Virus record (IMG/VR): IMGVR_UViG_3300014204_000128 | Span: 1-64,000 of that record | Source of the DNA: a virus | Taxonomy: Duplodnaviria > Caudoviricetes | Direction: 5' to 3' (one strand) | Length of the DNA: 64,000 nucleotides | In this document: positions 53,291 to 62,851 of the stretch, one piece after another | Layout of the letters: every line of letters starts with the position of its first letter | How positions within the stretch are numbered: position 1 is the stretch's first letter | The notes under the pieces: generated by a model | Databases searched by the model: none | What the model was told of the DNA's origin: nothing | What the model saw: only the letters and a program-made list of their open reading frames with translations | Translations under genes and position numbers: made by a program

Positions 53291-53571
53291 TGATAAAATC
53301 AGTCAATATAAAGTTTGAAAAATTACTACACGATACGGGCAAGGCAATACTTGTCCGTATCAATGGGGCTGAACATTGGATACCAAAGAAACTTTGCAGA
53401 AAATTGATTGTAAATAATAAGATGGGAGGCAACGTATGTATTCCAACATTCATAGCTGAGCAAATTGGATTTGATATAGAAGATTGCAGCCCTGATGTAG
53501 AAGTAATTCATCACATACCTGAAGCACAAGACAAAGCAAATATAAAGCACGATGCAGACCTTTTTAGATAG
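53290..53571 (+). CDS. Small beta-barrel protein (TGKAILV...WIPK)
   Basis: TAATG-coupled ORF with a common phage motif. Confidence 0.7.
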   Translation: MIKSVNIKFEKLLHDTGKAILVRINGAEHWIPKKLCRKLIVNNKMGGNVCIPTFIAEQIGFDIEDCSPDVEVIHHIPEAQDKANIKHDADLFR

Positions 53572-54748
53572 CCAAATAAAAGCAATTGATAAATTGAACG
53601 CTGTTAAGTGCGGTGCTTTATTTATGGAGGCTGGCACAGGCAAAACACGTTCGGCTTTAGAACTCATAAAAAATACTGATGCCGATTACATATTGTGGTT
53701 TACTCCATTTCAAACAAAGGAAAATTTACAGGCTGAAATAAATAAATGGGGCGGATTAGATTGTGATATTGTTGGCATTGAAAGCATTCAAAACAGCGAT
53801 AGAATTTATTTAGAACTTTCTCAAAAATGCGAACAAGCTAAAAAGGCATTTATTGTTGTTGACGAAAGTCTGAAGATAAAAAACTCTGATGCCAATAGAA
53901 CACAACGCCTTTTGCAATTGGCTGAAAAATCAGCTTATCGTATAATATTGAATGGAACACCGTTGAGCCGAAACTTGCTTGACCTGTGGTCGCAAATGGA
54001 ATTTCTTTCTCCAAAAATTCTAAAGATGGGATTGGCAGAGTTTAAAAATACCTTCTGCGAATACATAAAAGTAACCTATCATTTACAAGGCTTTGGAATG
54101 TCTTACTCAAAAGAGTTTATCAAAAAATATCACAACATTGATTATCTCTATTCATTGATTGAGCCGTTTATTTTTGAAAGCAAACTATCATTGAGTATTG
54201 GGCAGCAGCATATTGATATTGATTATAGTTTAACTGATGAAGAAAAGGCACAACACGACAAACTGAAAGAAAAGTATTTAGATAATGAATATTTGCTTGC
54301 AAAGAACAACAATATCTTTTTGGAAATTACCCAAAAGATGCAGCATAATTATTCTTTAAGCCATTCAAAATTTGAGATAGTAGATAAGTTGTTGTCAGAA
54401 ATTGACAAGTCAAAAGTTTTGATTTACGCAAAGTATATAGACACTCAGGAGCAACTTTCAAAGCACTATAAAGATGTTCGTATAATGAGCCTACAAAAAC
54501 ACTCATACGGTTTGAATTTGCAGGATTACAACGCAATAGTTTTTTGGGATAAGACTTGGGATTATGCCCAGCGTGAACAAATTGAAAGGAGAATATTCCG
54601 CACCGGGCAAATATCAAATTGCGTTTACTATGATTTAACTGGAAATGTTGGACTTGAAGGAATGATAAATCAAAACATTGAACGTAAAAGAAACTTACTT
54701 GATGTATTTGCAGAAATGAGTGTTGAACAATTAAGAAAAAAATTATGA
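53552..54748 (+). CDS. Compact SNF2-like helicase
   Basis: FMEAGTGKT, VDES, LNGTP, GLNLQ, RRIFRTGQ. Confidence 0.88.
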   Translation: MQTFLDSQIKAIDKLNAVKCGALFMEAGTGKTRSALELIKNTDADYILWFTPFQTKENLQAEINKWGGLDCDIVGIESIQNSDRIYLELSQKCEQAKKAFIVVDESLKIKNSDANRTQRLLQLAEKSAYRIILNGTPLSRNLLDLWSQMEFLSPKILKMGLAEFKNTFCEYIKVTYHLQGFGMSYSKEFIKKYHNIDYLYSLIEPFIFESKLSLSIGQQHIDIDYSLTDEEKAQHDKLKEKYLDNEYLLAKNNNIFLEITQKMQHNYSLSHSKFEIVDKLLSEIDKSKVLIYAKYIDTQEQLSKHYKDVRIMSLQKHSYGLNLQDYNAIVFWDKTWDYAQREQIERRIFRTGQISNCVYYDLTGNVGLEGMINQNIERKRNLLDVFAEMSVEQLRKKL

Positions 54749-56019
54749 ATGTTTACGAAGCTACACAGCAACGATTAAAGATAATATTTTCAGAGTTTGA
54801 TAACGTTTATGTTTCATTCTCTGGCGGCAAGGATAGTGGAGTATTACTAAACCTTTGCATTGACTATATACGCCAGCATAATTTGAATATAAAACTCGGA
54901 GTTTTCCATTTAGATTATGAAGCTCAATACCAAATGACAACCGAATATGTCAATAAAACACTTGCTGAAAATACTGATATACTTGAAGTTTATCGTTGTT
55001 GCGTTCCTTTTAAGGTTGCCACATGCACGTCAATGCACCAAAATTACTGGCGACCTTGGGAAGAATCAAAACAAGATATTTGGGTTAGTAAAATGCCTGA
55101 GAATTGCTTTACAAAAAAGGACTTTTCATATTTTAAACCTACTATGTGGGATTATGAGTTTCAGGAACGATTTAGCCAATGGCTTCACGAACGAAACAGA
55201 GCAAAAAAAACATGTTGTCTTGTAGGCATCCGCACACAGGAAAGTCTTAATCGTTGGCGTGCTATTCACAGTGACCGCAATTACAAAAAATACAATGGTT
55301 TGAATTGGACAAAAGAAATGTACGAAAATGTTTATAATGCTTATCCTATATACGATTGGATCACAACTGATGTGTGGACAGCAAACGGGCGTTTTAAATG
55401 GGATTACAATAAACTTTATGACTTATATTATAAGGCTGGAGTTGGTATAGAACAACAAAGAGTTGCAAGTCCTTTTCTTTCAACCGCTCAAGGAAGCCTT
55501 AAACTTTATAAAATAATTGAACCTAACACATGGGGTAAACTAATAAGCCGTGTGAATGGCGTTAATTTTACGGGCTTATATGGTGGAACAACTGCAATGG
55601 GTTGGAATACAATTAAACTGCCCAAAGGCCACACGTGGGAAAGTTATATGTACTTTCTTTTAAGCACATTACCTGAAGAAACCAAGGCTAATTATTTAGA
55701 TAAACTTTCAACAAGCATGAGGTTTTGGCGTGAAAAAGGCGGTGTTCTTTCATCATTAACCATTGATAAGTTAAAGAAGTCAGGTATTAAATTTGAAGTT
55801 GGAAAAACAACCAATTATAATACTTCAAAGTTGCCTGTTAAAATGGATTACATTGATGAAATTGATATTGCAGAAGCTAAAGAAATACCAACGTTTAAAA
55901 GAATGTGTATTTGCATTATGAAAAACGACCATTTGTGTAAATACATGGGATTTACTCTCACAAAAAACGAAATGGCCAGACGTAAGAATATTATCGAAAA
56001 ATATAAACCATTATTATGA
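54745..56019 (+). CDS. IbrA/YbdN-like PAPS-reductase-family PP-loop protein with DUF3440
   Basis: SFSGGKDSG, GIRTQESLNR, YPIYDW, KRMCICIMKNDHLC. Confidence 0.92.
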   Translation: MNVYEATQQRLKIIFSEFDNVYVSFSGGKDSGVLLNLCIDYIRQHNLNIKLGVFHLDYEAQYQMTTEYVNKTLAENTDILEVYRCCVPFKVATCTSMHQNYWRPWEESKQDIWVSKMPENCFTKKDFSYFKPTMWDYEFQERFSQWLHERNRAKKTCCLVGIRTQESLNRWRAIHSDRNYKKYNGLNWTKEMYENVYNAYPIYDWITTDVWTANGRFKWDYNKLYDLYYKAGVGIEQQRVASPFLSTAQGSLKLYKIIEPNTWGKLISRVNGVNFTGLYGGTTAMGWNTIKLPKGHTWESYMYFLLSTLPEETKANYLDKLSTSMRFWREKGGVLSSLTIDKLKKSGIKFEVGKTTNYNTSKLPVKMDYIDEIDIAEAKEIPTFKRMCICIMKNDHLCKYMGFTLTKNEMARRKNIIEKYKPLL

Positions 56020-56531
56020 TGAAATCACCAGTTTACAACGTAAAGGCTGTGCCAATTGAAAAGATACACGCCAATAGTTACAATCCTAATTCAGTTGCTC
56101 CACCCGAAATGAAGCTATTGTATCAGTCTATTAAAGAAGATGGATATACGATGCCTATTGTATGTTATTATATATCTGAAACAGATAGTTATGAAATTGT
56201 AGACGGTTATCATAGATATACTGTTATGCTTACCCATAAGGATATTTATGAGAGAGAAAAGGGATTAATGCCTGTAGTTGTGATAGAAAAGGACGAATCT
56301 AATAGAATGGCATCAACAATACGACATAATAGAGCAAGAGGTAGCCACAATATTGAATTGATGAGTAATATAGTATCTGAACTCACTAAAGCAGGAATGA
56401 GTGATGCTTGGATATTAAAAAATATTGGCATGGATGCGGATGAGTTATTGAGATTAAAACAAATAACAGGACTTGCATCATTATTTTCAGACAAAGAATT
56501 TTCCCGTAGTTGGGAAGTAGATAAACCCTGA
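56016..56531 (+). CDS. IbrB/YbdM-like ParB/Srx protein
   Basis: ANSYNPNSVAPPEMKLL, IVDGYHRY, STIRHNRARG. Confidence 0.92.
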   Translation: MMKSPVYNVKAVPIEKIHANSYNPNSVAPPEMKLLYQSIKEDGYTMPIVCYYISETDSYEIVDGYHRYTVMLTHKDIYEREKGLMPVVVIEKDESNRMASTIRHNRARGSHNIELMSNIVSELTKAGMSDAWILKNIGMDADELLRLKQITGLASLFSDKEFSRSWEVDKP

Positions 56532-59733: not shown

Positions 59734-60867
59734 ATGGCAAAAACAAACAAGGTAACGCCTATTTCTGAACTAAGGAAAGCATATGGGAGACCAGAAACAC
59801 AGTATTATGATACTGGTATCTTCTTATTGAATGACATTTGGGGAGGAGGTTTGCCTACGGGTAAGATAATAGAAATACACTCAGGTGAGGGTCTTGGTAA
59901 GACTACAATCATGCTACAGGCATGTAAGTCATTGATAGCGAAACATAACTTGAAGGTGGCTTACTTAGACGTAGAGAACGCATTAGATATATCATTAAGG
60001 AGCAATTTGGGCATAGTACCATACGAAAGTAATGACGCTGTTGAACCATCTTTCGCTTACCTGTGCCCTTTCACGTACGATGAGGTGTCTAAGACACTAA
60101 ACATACTCACTCGGGGTAATTATGATATCATAATCTATGATTCAATAGCCAATACAAGCCTGGACGTGGATGACTCAGAGGAAGAAGATTTCAAGATAAG
60201 CAAGAAACTGGGACAGCACGCATTACTACAGGGTGAGTTATTGAAGATGTTCAAGGGAAGACTAGCACGGTCTGGTAAAACACTGGTAATAATAAACCAG
60301 ATGAGAACTAATATCATTACTAATCCTATGAAAGCTAAGCATGCACCCGAATTGAAGCCTGCTGGTGGTAAGGTTCTAGACCATAATTTCGATATAAGAA
60401 CATCTATAGAACGTGTGGAGTGGATATTCGATGACAGCAAGGTTAAGATGGGGGCTAAACTCAGGTTAACTACAATAAAGAACAAGGTGGCTCCTCCATA
60501 TAGACAAGTAGAACTGGAACTAATATTCGGGTGGGGTATCAACAAGATAACTACACTCTGTACAGTACTGGTGAATAAGAATATCGCTGTACGTACCGGG
60601 GCTGTTTATACTCTGCCTAATACTGTGAAATGTGTAGGTCTTGAGAAGTTGAAAGACTATATCCGCGAAAACTACGCATTGTGCTTGTCATTCGTCGGTG
60701 ATAGTTCATATCAAGTGAACATACTAGGAGAGAAGATAGAAGAAGGGGCAGCCGTAGATAAAACAGCAGACGGGAAGGAAATAGTCATAAAGGAGGATGC
60801 CGAAACGGGCGGGGTCTCGTATAATGAACTGGAAGAATCATTTAAACAACCAACCAAAAGAAGATGA
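59734..60867 (+). CDS. recA: RecA/UvsX recombinase
   Basis: GGGLPTGKIIEI, GEGLGKTT, DVENALD, DSIA, INQMR, GGKVL, KNKVAPP. Confidence 0.95.
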   Translation: MAKTNKVTPISELRKAYGRPETQYYDTGIFLLNDIWGGGLPTGKIIEIHSGEGLGKTTIMLQACKSLIAKHNLKVAYLDVENALDISLRSNLGIVPYESNDAVEPSFAYLCPFTYDEVSKTLNILTRGNYDIIIYDSIANTSLDVDDSEEEDFKISKKLGQHALLQGELLKMFKGRLARSGKTLVIINQMRTNIITNPMKAKHAPELKPAGGKVLDHNFDIRTSIERVEWIFDDSKVKMGAKLRLTTIKNKVAPPYRQVELELIFGWGINKITTLCTVLVNKNIAVRTGAVYTLPNTVKCVGLEKLKDYIRENYALCLSFVGDSSYQVNILGEKIEEGAAVDKTADGKEIVIKEDAETGGVSYNELEESFKQPTKRR

Positions 60868-61790
60868 GTAACTTATTCGGAAATCCCCACCTGGAAACTA
60901 AACGTAGTCTGAACGACTACTTCATAGTTAAACCTTTCTCGGTTCTCAATACAATGGAACAAGGGTGGATGAGAAGGAAAGCATGGTGGTGTGAAATAAT
61001 AACAAACAGGGGTAAGTCACGTGAAAGTGTCCTTTTCAAGAAGTCTGGAAAGGAGACTACAAAACTGGGTAACACTATACAGACATTTAACAACGGAGTA
61101 TCATTGTTTGACCCAGTACTATCAGAAGCAATGGTAAGATGGTTCTCCGAGAAAGGTTGGGTCATACTAGACCCATTCGCAGGTGATGAGTCAAGGGGTT
61201 TCGTTTCTTGTTATTTAGAAAGGAACTACGTGGGTATAGAGTTGAGACAGGAACAGGTGAACTTAAACAGGGACAGAGTTAAAGAAGCTGGGTTAACGGG
61301 TTACAAATATATTTGTGATACATCTCTTAATATGGACAAACACGTCCCAATGGAAGCGGTAGACATGATACTTACATGCCCTCCTTACGCATTCTTAGAA
61401 AAGTACTCTGACAATCCTGAAGATTTGTCAAATATGTCTGTTGAAGACTTTTTCAGGGTGTACGACCATATACTAAATAAGACATACAGTGTATTAAAGA
61501 ATAACAGGTTCGCTGTTGTAGTGGTATCTGAAGTAAGAGACAAGACTGGGGGATACATAGGTCTGGTAAATAAGACTATAGAATCGATGGAGAAAGCTGG
61601 ATACATGTACTACAACGAAATAATACTGCTTAACAATGTAGGAACACTCCGTTTCAGGGTAGGTAACCAGATGAACAGTGGAAGAAAAATAGGCAGGTTA
61701 CACCAGAACGTCCTAGTATTCTACAAGGGTAATGCATCAAAGATAAAGGAAAACTTTTCAAAACTAATAGGTGATGACAACGAAGAATAA
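60864..61790 (+). CDS. DNA amino-methyltransferase (N6A/N4C fold)
   Basis: PFSVL...W..RK..W, FDPVL.E, motif I LDPFAG, motif IV TCPPY, HQNVLVFYKG. Confidence 0.88.
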   Translation: MSNLFGNPHLETKRSLNDYFIVKPFSVLNTMEQGWMRRKAWWCEIITNRGKSRESVLFKKSGKETTKLGNTIQTFNNGVSLFDPVLSEAMVRWFSEKGWVILDPFAGDESRGFVSCYLERNYVGIELRQEQVNLNRDRVKEAGLTGYKYICDTSLNMDKHVPMEAVDMILTCPPYAFLEKYSDNPEDLSNMSVEDFFRVYDHILNKTYSVLKNNRFAVVVVSEVRDKTGGYIGLVNKTIESMEKAGYMYYNEIILLNNVGTLRFRVGNQMNSGRKIGRLHQNVLVFYKGNASKIKENFSKLIGDDNEE

Positions 61791-62649
61791 TGTGACTGCT
61801 TTGACCCCTATAATACCATACGCTACAGTACTAGTTAAGAGGGAAGACATGTATGTAGAGGGTATGGTTAACGGAGGCAAGGTCAGGCAGTGCAGGATGT
61901 TGTTGGAGAATAATATAGACTTAATAAGAAATAGTTACGGTGGTCGTGTGGTGTGTTCAGTACATTTGCAGAGTCCACAGTCTGCAATTGTATCTCACGT
62001 GTGCAAGACACTAGGATTGGAATGTCATATAGTGGCTTACGGAACAACGGTTCCAAATACCCAGTTATCAATGGCAAAGAGGAACGGCGCTATACTGTAC
62101 GGTACTAAAAGTCCATACAGGACTACGCACGAGTTCATAATAAAGAACTATTTTTCTGACTGTTACTGGGTAAGGATGGGATTCGTTGATGACTCAATAG
62201 TTAACGCTACTCTGGCACAAGTGGAGAACATACCAGATTACTTGGATTATTTAGTTCTACCCATAGGAAGTGGGATAAACGCTGTCTCTGTAGTCAAGGG
62301 GTTAGAAAAGTATAATAAGAGTGTAAAGAATGTTATCGGTGTGTGGGTCGGTAAGAACAGAGAGCAGTTATTCAGGACAATGTTGGGTGAAGAATTAACT
62401 AGCAAGATAAAACTGGTTAAGGCTCATGTTGACTACAATACACATATTGACGTCGGTGTAGATTTCATTGATAGTGTATACGAGGCAAAAGCATGGCATT
62501 ACATGACTGAGAACATAGACACAAAAGTAAACAAGGTGCTGTTCTGGGTCGTGGGTACACGTAATGATACTAACGGGACTGAAGAACTTGTATGGCATGA
62601 TGCTAAAGAACGTGTTAAGTTCCGTATGTTTTCCAGGGGTGTTCAATAA
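61774..62649 (+). CDS. PLP-dependent fold-II enzyme (ACC deaminase/D-cysteine desulfhydrase-like)
   Basis: LTP, VKRED...GGKVR (PLP lysine), PIGSGI, DSVYEAKA. Confidence 0.85.
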   Translation: MTTKNNVTALTPIIPYATVLVKREDMYVEGMVNGGKVRQCRMLLENNIDLIRNSYGGRVVCSVHLQSPQSAIVSHVCKTLGLECHIVAYGTTVPNTQLSMAKRNGAILYGTKSPYRTTHEFIIKNYFSDCYWVRMGFVDDSIVNATLAQVENIPDYLDYLVLPIGSGINAVSVVKGLEKYNKSVKNVIGVWVGKNREQLFRTMLGEELTSKIKLVKAHVDYNTHIDVGVDFIDSVYEAKAWHYMTENIDTKVNKVLFWVVGTRNDTNGTEELVWHDAKERVKFRMFSRGVQ

Positions 62650-62790
62650 AATATAAATAGTTGGTTAAGTTATAAAAATACTTTCACATACATATTTTGT
62701 AAAAATTGTATAAAAAATTTACAATAGATTTATATATTGTTTGTGAAGACCACTTCTTTGTAGCAGTCCAGTAACTGCCGTTCCAGGTTG

Positions 62791-62823
62791 AGCCGACTAT
62801 TTCCGTAAATAGTCGGCTTTTTT
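62791..62823 (+). terminator. Rho-independent terminator
   Basis: AGCCGACTATT-TCCGTA-AATAGTCGGCT-TTTTT. Confidence 0.88.
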
Positions 62824-62851
62824 ATTCGTATAATTGAAAAACATTAATGAT

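Follow-up and report, generated by a model that had tools for sequence, protein, structure and literature searches.

Many unrelated phages carry a gene for a fold-type II pyridoxal phosphate (PLP) enzyme, here called PALP, that is paired with a gene for an amino-methyltransferase-fold protein, here called MT1, and the two are often fused into one protein. The recurrence suggests a route of DNA modification not yet described, in which bases receive a part of S-adenosylmethionine (SAM) that is bigger than a methyl group. In the model proposed here, MT1 and PALP work together as a two-enzyme module for the modification of DNA bases. MT1 is a candidate alkyltransferase acting on DNA, with aminopropyl or aminocarboxypropyl as the transferred group, although it could instead be a plain methylase, and PALP is its candidate decarboxylase partner.

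Known post-replicative hypermodifications of phage DNA affect thymine (via 5-hmdU), cytosine (via 5-hmC or 5-cxmC), guanine (deazaguanines), and adenine (Mom). None of them is known to have a methyltransferase-fold enzyme that places the amino-acid arm of SAM on DNA.

Gene Arrangement

The window is the whole stretch of DNA that was analysed, 64,000 nucleotides long. It comes from a viral record of 113,383 bp (IMGVR_UViG_3300014204_000128) that is possibly half-complete, with an estimated completeness of 53%. The features of interest are the following.

59734..60867, + strand: recA/UvsX-like recombinase (PF00154, 98.9 bits; phrog_97, 2e-37)
60864..61790, + strand: MT1, amino-methyltransferase fold, SAM-binding, 308 aa (PF01555, 56.8 bits, cut-off 26.7; phrog_12517, 1e-82; phrog_498, 6e-77)
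61771..62649, + strand: PALP, fold-type II PLP enzyme, 292 aa (PF00291, 35.1 bits, cut-off 35; phrog_3650, 5e-21; phrog_7093, 1e-8)
62790..62819, + strand: intrinsic-terminator-like hairpin (13-bp stem, 4-nt loop, TTTTTTAT tail)

The three genes overlap head to tail, and the unit is closed by the hairpin, whose stem is followed by a run of T. As read from the sequence, the stop of recA and the start of MT1 share an ATGA overlap, and PALP starts within the 3' end of MT1, either at a GTG (61771) or at an ATG (61774). The first open reading frame past the hairpin starts at 62834. Reading frames, overlaps, and hairpin all agree with an earlier, sequence-only reading of the window, which had described the three genes as one overlapping unit that ends before a terminator.

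The unit begins with the recA/UvsX-like gene, which provides context and has no part in the proposed chemistry. Of 80 related loci, about 15 have recA no more than a few kb from PALP, and the order recA then MT1 recurs in two close relatives (L095 and L096). The same genome also contains a PAPS-reductase/DUF3440 gene with a ParB gene, and a Cys-cluster YkgJ-like gene.

Pairing and Fusion

An MT1- or MT2-type gene lies at most 300 bp from PALP in 33 of 80 IMG/VR loci, and within 4 kb in 7 more. The gene order varies. PALP may precede the methylase (L003-5), the methylase may precede PALP (L006/7), or the two may be separated (MTase-x-PALP in L008). The nearest homologue of PALP, with 57% identity, has an MT1 orthologue (73% identity) upstream of it and overlapping.

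Fusions between PALP and a methylase show at least four architectures. In one of them, found in Pam4 gp70, P0381, and P0382, PALP interrupts an MT1-type methylase between its motifs I-II and its motif IV. Elsewhere the methylase is fused in front of PALP (P0098 and P0034) or behind it (P0095), and in some loci the methylase halves are split, one on each side of PALP (L012-16 and L038). No other modification genes accompany P0382, which stands alone beside a resolvase, and the fused unit thus appears to need no further partner. The predicted fold of one natural fusion had a pTM of 0.49 and gave no reliable interdomain geometry. Another fusion joins PALP to a CxxCxxCC segment (P0039).

Conserved adjacency in variable order, several independent fusions, and the retention of the pair in the closest relative show that the pairing is not due to chance and support a functional coupling of MT1 and PALP.

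The inserted forms also suggest a different role for PALP, in which it would serve the methylase without catalysis, as a structural or target-recognition subunit. It would sit between motifs I-III and IV, in the place of a target-recognition domain, and the insertion site in Pam4 gp70, P0381, and P0382 is that of the alpha-class target-recognition domain. However, 141-146 of 149 family representatives retain the PLP lysine, the phosphate loop, and a Tyr-Glu pair, which is unexpected for a pseudo-enzyme. Such a non-catalytic role is very improbable.

A Relative of DNA-Acting Decarboxylases

The PLP site of PALP consists of K37 (the PLP lysine, in GGKVRQ), S68-P69-Q70, the phosphate loop G166-S167-G, and Y237-E238-x-K240. 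K37 is invariant in all 144 aligned representatives (family alignment A1). A structure model with a pLDDT of 84.9 has D-cysteine desulfhydrase (DcyD) and ACC deaminase as its top Foldseek matches, with a TM of 0.68 to 4d8t/4d99 and 1tzk/1j0a. The assignment as a fold-II PLP enzyme with an intact lysine motif, made at first from the letters of the sequence, is borne out by the alignment and the model alike.

ACC deaminase and D-cysteine desulfhydrase (4d8t, 1tzk, 1j0a) align with PALP in the lysine, the phosphate loop, and a 'DPVY(T/E)GK'-like motif. An hhalign comparison of the PALP family with E. coli DcyD gave 97% and E 9e-11, with GGK aligned to GGNK (the K51-equivalent lysine). Identity to these enzymes is only 16-19%, however, and PALP has SPQ where they have S-N-H in the substrate loop S78-N79-(H/Q)80. 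Unlike them, members of the PALP family are carried by phages and linked to DNA enzymes. PALP matches none of the NCBIfam enzyme models, including those for ACC deaminase and D-cysteine desulfhydrase.

By sequence comparison, PALP is nearer to gp52 of Pseudomonas phage M6 than to DcyD. Alignment A1 and gp52 gave 98.85% and E 4.2e-17 in hhalign over 255 columns, BLASTP of PALP against gp52 gave E 2e-10 at 24% identity, and the homology spans the full length. K37 of PALP aligns with K36 of gp52, and its Tyr-Glu with Tyr-Asp. M6 gp52 and gp226 of Salmonella phage ViI have been shown experimentally to be PLP decarboxylases of amino-acid:thymidine conjugates in DNA, and K36 is the Schiff-base lysine of gp52 (Lee et al., NAR 2022, PMC8989533). 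They are the only decarboxylases known to act on DNA. The link to the ViI- and M6-type PLP enzymes drawn by the sequence-only reading is one of true homology and not mere analogy.

Several features are common to both systems. M6 gp52, ViI gp226, and PALP are phage-encoded proteins of about 280-290 residues with the fold-type II PLP fold, and gp52 and PALP share the lysine position, the Tyr-acid pair, and an 'FW..G' C-terminal motif. Both adjoin DNA-acting SAM enzymes, M6 gp53 being an SPL-like radical SAM protein of the kind found in the loci where PALP has a radical SAM partner, and fusions to an upstream pathway enzyme are known in both families. On the other hand, PALP belongs to phrog_3650, whereas the length and annotation of gp52 fit another PHROG, phrog_7093. 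The partner of PALP is an amino-methyltransferase-fold enzyme, unlike in M6 and ViI. Its proposed substrate is either SAM or a SAM-derived group carried by A or C, whereas that of the M6 and ViI enzymes is a glycine or serine adduct on thymine.

An hmU kinase or amino acid:DNA transferase had not been seen in the window. A search of the whole record likewise found no HMUDK (PF18723) and no relative of M6 gp51 (aGPT-Pplase2) or of the M6 gp54 kinase, which is weak evidence since the completeness of the record is 53% and no positive control accompanied the searches. The record also gave no sign of a dUMP hydroxymethylase, its thymidylate-synthase homologue resembling true ThyA and not the M6 hydroxymethylase.

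The Methyltransferase-Fold Partner

MT1 matches PF01555 in two pieces in permuted order, and a whole-genome scan agrees. Motif I, the SAM-binding F-x-G-x-G motif (DPFAGDESRG, residues 103-112, with DPFAGDES at 103-110), lies ahead of motif IV (TCPPY, 171-175), an order permuted relative to the beta-class Pfam model. Classical methylases of this family (M.PvuII, DpnA, TTHA0409) share motif I and a PPY-type motif IV with MT1, and they too are found as orphan phage genes and as fusions to ParB. The best solved relatives of MT1 are N4-C and N6-A DNA methylases. MT1 differs from the classical enzymes in having systematic decarboxylase partners.

Both motifs are atypical for an amino-methylase, the DPFAGDES loop having been pointed out as such for this window. 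D103-P-F-A-G107 is invariant in 29 homologues and is followed by Asp108, where classical N6/N4 methylases have Ser or Gly. Motif IV departs from the classical (D/N/S)-P-P-(Y/F/W), since P-P-Y is retained but preceded by an invariant Cys172 (T-C-P-P-Y). The motifs are not peculiar to this phage, however. They are common to the whole family, with CPPY in 120 of the 120 best MT1 homologues and DPFAGD in nearly all of them, and they also occur in relatives without a PLP partner. The family has at least 4638 members, many of which are ParB_N fusions.

The Asp after motif I is found in 71 of 74 MT1 proteins linked to SpeD, the second partner described below. It is mostly absent from methylases linked or fused to PALP, which have G, V, S, or H instead, while MT1 of the window and its close relatives keep it whatever the partner, a pattern that counts against the proposed module. 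F-A-G-D of MT1 matches G-G-G-D of spermidine synthase by motif register alone, which makes the likeness a lead only. In aminopropyltransferases of the spermidine-synthase type, the Asp of G-G-G-D-G selects decarboxylated SAM. An hhalign comparison of the MT1 alignment (A2) with E. coli SpeE gave no meaningful alignment and did not confirm the equivalence of the two Asp residues. MT1 is not assigned to the aminopropyltransferase family.

A Second Partner: SpeD-Like SAM Decarboxylases

Independently of PALP, the MT1 family is linked to a SAM decarboxylase. In 70 of 80 loci, a small SpeD-like gene lies directly 3' of the MT1-family gene, and the self-processing motif ESH..IHT.P is present in all 80 SpeD-like proteins. 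The pair is also found in two isolates, Croceibacter phage P2559S and Pseudomonas phage ZRG1. In P2559S, gp67 has AdoMetDC activity, as it enabled E. coli delta-speD to make spermidine again (Li et al., PNAS 2023, PMC9992855). It was treated there as a polyamine gene, and the neighbouring methylase is unmentioned.

The methylases of the pairs in P2559S (gp66-gp67) and ZRG1 belong to the same MT1 family, with CPPY and F-A-G-D, and are 41-43% identical to MT1 of the window. In both phages, as in MT1-PALP, the gene for a Schiff-base-forming decarboxylase lies immediately downstream and overlaps. Such modules of a ParB-methylase and a SAM decarboxylase are often near replication or packaging genes, as here. 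The decarboxylase itself is different: it is a pyruvoyl enzyme of SpeD type, about 100 residues long, that acts on free SAM, whereas PALP is a PLP enzyme. The two partners were never found together, with no SpeD in 80 PALP loci, no PALP in 80 SpeD loci, and no SpeD-like gene in this genome.

The sequence-only reading had proposed a two-step base modification that ends in PLP-dependent elimination, deamination, or decarboxylation. Decarboxylation is the best supported of these options, since in other phages the genes of the MT1 family are tightly linked to a genuine SAM decarboxylase. The coupling of the two genes also held, while the chemistry, the target base, and the product are proposals.

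SpeD homologues could also hint at a metabolic role. PALP may be an auxiliary metabolic gene whose product has free small molecules as its substrates (as an amino-acid deaminase, desulfhydrase, decarboxylase, or SAM- or polyamine-related enzyme) and either feeds polyamine or precursor pools or depletes SAM against host SAM-dependent defences. Its proximity to MT1 would then reflect no more than shared regulation. The closest solved folds are small-molecule enzymes (DcyD, ACC deaminase, SbnA, TdcB), and phage SpeD homologues are established polyamine auxiliary genes (PMC9992855). Mere co-regulation, however, would not be expected to yield several independent fusions and a domain insertion. The greater closeness to gp52, which acts on DNA, the DNA-directed nature of other PALP partners (ParB_N, SPL-family radical SAM), and the lack of a matching NCBIfam enzyme model also argue against a metabolic role, which is quite improbable.

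Proposed Mechanism

In the module proposed for MT1 and PALP, MT1 would bind SAM or decarboxylated SAM and flip out a base, which would be A or C if MT1 behaves like the related N6/N4 methylases. It would pass the three-carbon amino(carboxy)propyl arm of its cofactor to that base and release methylthioadenosine. PALP could then act in one of two ways. It may decarboxylate an aminocarboxypropyl group that is already on the DNA, or it may decarboxylate SAM and so provide MT1 with decarboxylated SAM. Both routes would lead to an N-(3-aminopropyl) base, a cationic adduct like other phage hypermodifications, which would presumably shield the DNA from host nucleases.

DNA as the substrate of MT1, the transferred group, the target base, the order of steps, and the biological role are all inferred. 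That MT1 and a decarboxylating partner produce aminopropyl-DNA in this manner is a tentative proposal, given somewhat less than an even chance.

Examples of the same logic are found in the biosynthesis of antibiotics. In microcin C maturation, MccD, a methylase-fold aminocarboxypropyl transferase, is followed by the PLP decarboxylase MccE. Mur24 and Mur23 of muraymycin biosynthesis carry out the same aminocarboxypropyl transfer and then a PLP-dependent decarboxylation, which leaves an aminopropyl group. The comparison is one of logic: MccE (N-terminal domain) and Mur23 are of other PLP fold types than PALP, and the substrates are a peptidyl-nucleotide or nucleoside antibiotic, not DNA.

The model may be extended to the whole family. 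The thousands of 'DNA methylases' with CPPY and F-A-G-D, mostly phage-borne and often fused to ParB, might in fact transfer aminopropyl or aminocarboxypropyl groups to DNA. With decarboxylated SAM as the cofactor, or with SAM and the help of a dedicated decarboxylase, they would equip adenine or cytosine with a cationic aminopropyl group, and decarboxylation would have been recruited at least twice independently (pyruvoyl SpeD-type and PLP gp52-type). This extension is possible, though on the doubtful side.

If true, the model would add a new natural base modification of DNA, in which A or C bears an N-aminopropyl or aminocarboxypropyl group, and would show the polyamine cofactor in a new use. 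Thousands of genes annotated as 'DNA methylase' would be reassigned, and SAM decarboxylases in phages without spermidine synthase would be explained. Enzymes of the MT1 type could in that case also become tools for the sequence-directed attachment of primary amines to DNA.

Loci without the Pair

The MT1 family, with its thousands of proteins, is far larger than the PALP family (about 300-900 clusters), and most of its members have no adjacent decarboxylase gene. For instance, L095 and L096, the nearest relatives of this phage, have MT1 proteins of 73% and 67% identity with the same DPFAGDESRG, and a PP-loop-like gene in the PALP slot. MT1 can evidently function without PALP, then, which fits an ordinary methylase. 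Likewise, the methylase is absent from half of the PALP loci, which instead contain an SPL-like radical SAM gene and ParB, or a C5-methylase (Dcm). PALP is therefore not tied to one kind of partner.

Such loci suggest that MT1 may be an ordinary orphan N6-A or N4-C methylase for anti-restriction. PALP would then cooperate with DNA-acting SAM enzymes in some other way, for example in gp52-like tailoring of another amino-acid adduct, whose installer would lie in the missing half of the genome, or by acting on a SAM-derived by-product at the methylase. The best solved relatives of MT1 are real methylases of both kinds, and thousands of its homologues are solitary or accompanied by ParB only. The radical SAM-PALP arrangement is like that of M6 gp53-gp52, a system in which other enzymes attach the amino acid (PMC8989533), and the incompleteness of the record leaves room for an installer. 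On the other hand, the insertion of PALP, the split methylase halves, and the solitary P0382 argue that the methylase-fold part itself yields the substrate of PALP. The record yielded no HMUDK or aGPT-Pplase relative and a ThyA-like thymidylate-synthase homologue, and the parallel lock between MT1 and a SAM decarboxylase would be left unexplained. An ordinary methylase is, on balance, rather unlikely.

The PP-loop-like gene in the PALP slot of L095 and L096 bears on a further possibility, that PALP supplies sulfur. Sulfide from cysteine would serve DNA thiolation or phosphorothioation with PP-loop enzymes of the phage group, and MT1 would possibly methylate the product. The top structural matches of PALP are D-cysteine desulfhydrases, and the PAPS-reductase/DUF3440, ParB, and YkgJ-like genes and the P0039 fusion would fit as well. 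However, none of the 80 loci has PP-loop genes adjoining PALP. At two positions that separate ACC deaminase (Glu, Leu) from D-cysteine desulfhydrase (Thr, Thr), the PALP family has Glu238 and Val. Given this Glu/hydrophobic signature of the ACC-deaminase type, the PLP-driven sulfur supply listed by the sequence-only reading gained no specific support and has only the slightest chance of being correct; the nearest characterised relative of PALP is a decarboxylase.

The overlapping unit

The record is linear and 113,383 bp long, with an estimated completeness of 53%, and the window is its first 64 kb. Nearly all of its genes are carried on the plus strand. The unit consists of the following features.

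59734-60867, plus strand: recA/UvsX-like gene (PF00154, 98.9 bits)
60864-61790, plus strand: MT1, a 308-aa protein with an amino-methyltransferase fold (PF01555 in two pieces in permuted order, 56.8 bits; phrog_12517, 1e-82; phrog_498 "DNA methyltransferase", 6e-77)
61771-62649, plus strand: PALP, a 292-aa PLP enzyme (PF00291, 35.1 bits, right at the cut-off; phrog_3650, 5e-21; phrog_7093, 1e-8)
62790-62819: terminator-like hairpin, a 13-bp stem followed by a T run

The three reading frames overlap head to tail. The recA-like stop and the MT1 start have an ATGA in common, and PALP starts at GTG 61771 or ATG 61774, within the last codons of MT1. The first reading frame past the hairpin begins at 62834. 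Since the frames, the overlaps and the hairpin are all observed, the sequence-only reading was correct in describing an overlapping recA-methylase-PLP unit before a terminator. A search of a phage collection gave no match to this stretch at the DNA level. PALP and the next gene are separated by 180 nt (62650-62830), in which the terminator is accompanied by short hairpins and a promoter-like site (62697-62725).

The PLP enzyme

The 18 close homologues in alignment A1 have in common T12-P13, K23-R24-x-D26, G35-G36-K37-V-R-Q, S68-P69-Q70, G166-S167, Y237-E238-x-K240 and W259..G262. Searching 1.84 billion representatives with a profile gave 301 clusters at E<=1e-30 and 889 at E<=1e-10. Across the 149 best of them, almost no variation is seen at the lysine, the Gly-Ser loop or the Glu.

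Because a sequence search of the PDB with PALP gave no match, the fold was modelled. The AlphaFold model (pLDDT 84.9, pTM 0.83) resembles D-cysteine desulfhydrase (4d8t, 4d99), ACC deaminase (1tzk, 1j0a), SbnA and TdcB, with TM-scores of about 0.65-0.7. PALP also aligns with E. coli DcyD at 97% probability (hhalign). In this alignment K37 corresponds to K51, SPQ to S-N-H, GSG to GSAGT, Y-E to Y-T, and "FWVVG" to "FIHTGG". The conserved PLP residues, the model and the DcyD alignment together show that PALP is a genuine fold-type II PLP enzyme, and probably an active one.

None of the NCBIfam enzyme models matches PALP. Two positions, which we take to distinguish ACC deaminases (Glu, Leu) from desulfhydrases (Thr, Thr), are Glu and Val in the PALP family.

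Fusions and neighbours

Some proteins contain both PALP and a methylase. An example is gp70 of the Pseudanabaena phage Pam4, an 829-aa protein annotated as "PLP-dependent enzyme". Its order is the N-terminal part of an MT1-type methylase with motifs I-II (318-384), a PALP homologue (406-665), and the C-terminal part from motif IV onward (680-804). PALP is likewise inserted within the methylase in P0381 (704 aa) and P0382 (773 aa), the latter standing alone between a resolvase and opposite-strand genes on a temperate-phage contig. When P0381 was folded with its alignment A4, the domains were confident and the interdomain packing was unreliable (pTM 0.49).

End-to-end fusions occur in both directions, with the methylase first in P0098 and P0034 and PALP first in P0095. 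P0383 and locus L068 combine PALP with the C-terminal half of a methylase. In the IMG/VR loci L012-16 and L038, a separate 220-aa frame with motif I is followed by PALP and then by a frame with TSPPY, an arrangement that reads as a split methylase wrapped around PALP.

Free-standing PALP genes adjoin methylase genes in both orders. A gene of type MT1, or of a second methylase type called MT2, lies 300 bp or less from PALP in 33 of 80 viral loci and within 4 kb in 7 more; the loci were fetched with family-specific patterns, so these counts hold for those subfamilies rather than for every homologue. In the nearest relative of PALP (57% identity), the gene overlaps an upstream MT1 orthologue (73% identity). 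Counting the methylase-PLP adjacency across phages had been suggested from the sequence, and the pairing proves to be conserved, with several fusion architectures. The fusions, the split forms, the locus counts and the nearest homologue all indicate that the adjacency in the window represents a conserved module rather than an accident of packing.

Other PALP fusions are P0052 (765 aa), P0055 (844 aa), P0159 (743 aa) and P0026 (592 aa), whose extra regions match no methylase profile. The N-terminus of P0052 weakly matches LPG_synthase_C (aminoacyl-tRNA transferase-like), and P0026 weakly matches DUF3223.

Relation to PLP enzymes that act on DNA

Phages M6 and ViI encode PLP-dependent decarboxylases, gp52 and gp226, whose substrates are amino-acid:thymidine conjugates within polymeric DNA (Lee et al., NAR 2022, PMC8989533). 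The proposed lysine of gp52 is K36, and gp226 was modelled on 1j0a (PMC8989533). A1 aligns with M6 gp52 over the full length, at 98.85% probability and E 4e-17 (hhalign), which is better than its alignment with DcyD. K37 falls on K36, Y-E on Y-D, and "FWVVG" on "FWNIG"; by BLASTP, PALP matches gp52 at E 2e-10. The full-length alignment and the matched PLP lysine place PALP, at the level of sequence, in the same superfamily as gp52 and gp226, the only PLP enzymes known to act on DNA.

The supply of substrate differs from that in M6. The sequence-only reading had proposed looking for amino acid:DNA transferase or hmU kinase genes in the rest of the genome. In the record, searches for HMUDK (PF18723) and for relatives of M6 gp51 and gp54 found none; as perhaps half of the genome is covered, this absence is weak evidence. 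A 376-aa thymidylate-synthase homologue was considered as a dUMP hydroxymethylase for an M6-type pathway and is unlikely to be one. With E. coli ThyA it shares 30% identity (E 2e-43) as well as the PCH and Asn motif, compared with E 1e-4 for M6 gp58, and it looks like a true ThyA. Its gene lies at 75757-76887 of the whole record (G000; L092:11757-12887). Compared with E. coli ThyA, the protein contains insertions that total about 110 residues, and it keeps the D..LG.P.N motif.

In M6 itself, gp54 is the 5-hmdU DNA kinase and gp52 the PLP decarboxylase (Lee et al., PMC8989533). RefSeq labels gp54 (L108:13686-14249, NC_007809) "terminase small subunit" and gp52 "threonine dehydratase". Automatic annotation that relies on such labels will go wrong for related modules.

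PALP loci without a detected methylase

The neighbour of gp52 in M6, gp53, is an SPL-like radical SAM isomerase (PMC8989533). This gp53-gp52 pair is mirrored by loci where PALP follows a radical SAM gene. Among the 40 PALP loci without a detected methylase, the commonest layout is two ParB_N genes, a radical SAM gene (340 aa), PALP and terminase genes. The radical SAM protein is of the Rv2578c/PA0069 family, the spore-photoproduct-lyase-like "DNA repair photolyase" group. The module resembles gp53-gp52 without the installing enzymes in the fetched stretches, where neither a methylase nor a recognisable hmU kinase was found. It occurs in L046, L057, L058, L060, L062, L067, L078 and L080-L083 (e.g. 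L082:3632-6831), small siphovirus-like genomes in which the terminase genes follow it directly.

Loci of this kind would suit a reading in which MT1 is a plain methylase and PALP tailors something else. The fusions with methylases speak for a shared task, and we regard that reading as rather unlikely.

Two jumbo-phage loci contain PALP together with both a Dcm-type C5-methylase and an Rv2578c/PA0069-type radical SAM protein, possibly a version of the module that is directed at cytosine:

L070/L071:5956-10112 (viral contigs of 387 kb and 100 kb): PALP, an 84-aa frame, a Dcm-type C5-cytosine methylase (TIGR00675, 188 bits), a 242-aa unknown protein and an SPL-like radical SAM protein

Fusions to radical SAM domains are also seen for MT2-type methylases (P0365, P0371, P0372 and P0375), and in P0039 PALP is fused to a CxxCxxCC/YkgJ-type domain. 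Judged by the ParB, radical SAM, Dcm-type and MT2 associations, the partners of PALP all appear to be DNA-directed or SAM-using proteins.

The MT1 family and its partner genes

At E<=1e-10 the homologues of MT1 number 4638 or more, and many of them carry a ParB_N domain at the N-terminus. Motif IV is C-P-P-Y in all of the best 120, and motif I is D-P-F-A-G-D in nearly all of them. A literature search gave no paper that mentions a methylase with CPPY. The single-strand-specific ParB-methylases M.EcoGIX and M.BceJIII (PMC7736820) were rejected as close matches, since they are beta-class enzymes with DPPY. From family relationships and the ParB fusions, we infer that MT1 acts on a base in DNA.

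In the closest relatives, L095 (73% identity) and L096 (67%), the order recA-MT1 is kept, and the gene behind is a 335-aa PP-loop-like gene in place of PALP. It was considered as a diverged PALP and rejected, having no similarity to PALP and weak PP-loop matches. Different accessory enzymes seem to be exchanged at the slot behind MT1. Other sampled MT1 contexts have no evident partner gene. MT1 may equally be a methylase working alone in this phage, a reading that these contexts would fit. The 335-aa protein (L095:4959-5966, L096:5996-7003) matches QueC, TtuA, TilS and PAPS reductase at E of about 1e-3 to 1e-5.

A second kind of partner is found in L097, where the gene behind MT1 encodes an AdoMet_dc protein of 100 aa, a putative small SpeD-like SAM decarboxylase. 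With this protein as query, 80 viral loci were fetched. An MT1-family gene is immediately upstream and overlapping in 70 of them and within 4 kb in 3 more, and the self-processing motif ESH..IHT.P is present in all 80 decarboxylase homologues. Retrieval was again by family-specific patterns, and the counts apply to this subfamily. The pair occurs in two cultured phages, Croceibacter phage P2559S (gp66, gp67) and Pseudomonas phage ZRG1, and probably in Microcystis phage Mae-JY30. E. coli delta-speD regains spermidine synthesis when given the P2559S enzyme (Li et al., PNAS 2023, PMC9992855); gp67 is therefore a bona fide SAM decarboxylase. Its methylase neighbour is never mentioned in that paper. 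The two kinds of partner were not seen together in these loci: no SpeD-like gene was found in the 80 PALP loci or in this genome, and no PALP in the 80 SpeD loci.

A possible mechanism

MT1-type genes pair with two unrelated kinds of Schiff-base-forming alpha-amino-acid decarboxylase, one pyruvoyl-dependent and one PLP-dependent. The sole alpha-amino-acid moiety in a methylase reaction is the methionine arm of SAM. Given these two points, the most economical reading is that MT1-type enzymes would move the three-carbon arm of SAM and not the methyl group. That MT1 and PALP jointly make a non-methyl modification in this phage is a tentative proposal, to which we give slightly less than even weight. 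The reading of a plain methylase with a PALP that tailors something else comes next, and the other rivals share the rest.

Decarboxylation could take place before or after transfer. In the first route, SAM would be converted to decarboxylated SAM, as SpeD does in spermidine synthesis. In the second, aminocarboxypropyl-DNA would be converted to aminopropyl-DNA by a gp52-like enzyme. MccD and MccE of microcin C are a precedent for transfer followed by decarboxylation.

In 71 of 74 SpeD-linked MT1 proteins, an Asp follows the glycine of motif I. By motif register it takes the place of the Asp in the G-G-G-D-G of spermidine synthase, which is thought to exclude the SAM carboxylate; the equivalence is one of register only, as hhalign gave no alignment between the MT1 family and E. 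coli spermidine synthase. Methylases fused or adjacent to PALP mostly have G, V, S or H there, which would fit the use of intact SAM and later decarboxylation on DNA. Since the window MT1 has Asp, as do relatives without a partner, this residue assigns neither route to the phage. In the literature found, with incomplete coverage of subscription journals, no methylase-PLP or methylase-SpeD pair for DNA modification is described, which is no proof of novelty.

Other candidate modification genes

About 6 kb past the window end, at G000 69892-73368 (L092:5892-9368), lies MT2, a second methylase paralogue. Its extein has 322 aa with DPFAGHN and TSPPYW, and it carries two inteins, of 436 aa after motif I and 400 aa after motif IV. 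A gene for a YkgJ-like Cys-cluster protein (G000 73370-73918; L092:9370-9918) begins one base past the MT2 stop. Elsewhere, in P0098, the methylase fused to PALP is of the MT2 type. This fusion, those of MT2-type methylases with radical SAM domains and the PALP-CxxCxxCC fusion suggest that both methylase-partner pairs in this phage could be parts of a single network.

Within the window, three overlapping genes at 53552-56531 form a separate candidate cassette for DNA modification or anti-defence.

53552-54748: SNF2-type helicase
54745-56019: PAPS-reductase/PP-loop and DUF3440 protein, IbrA-like (DUF3440 at 293 bits)
56016-56531: ParB_N protein, IbrB-like
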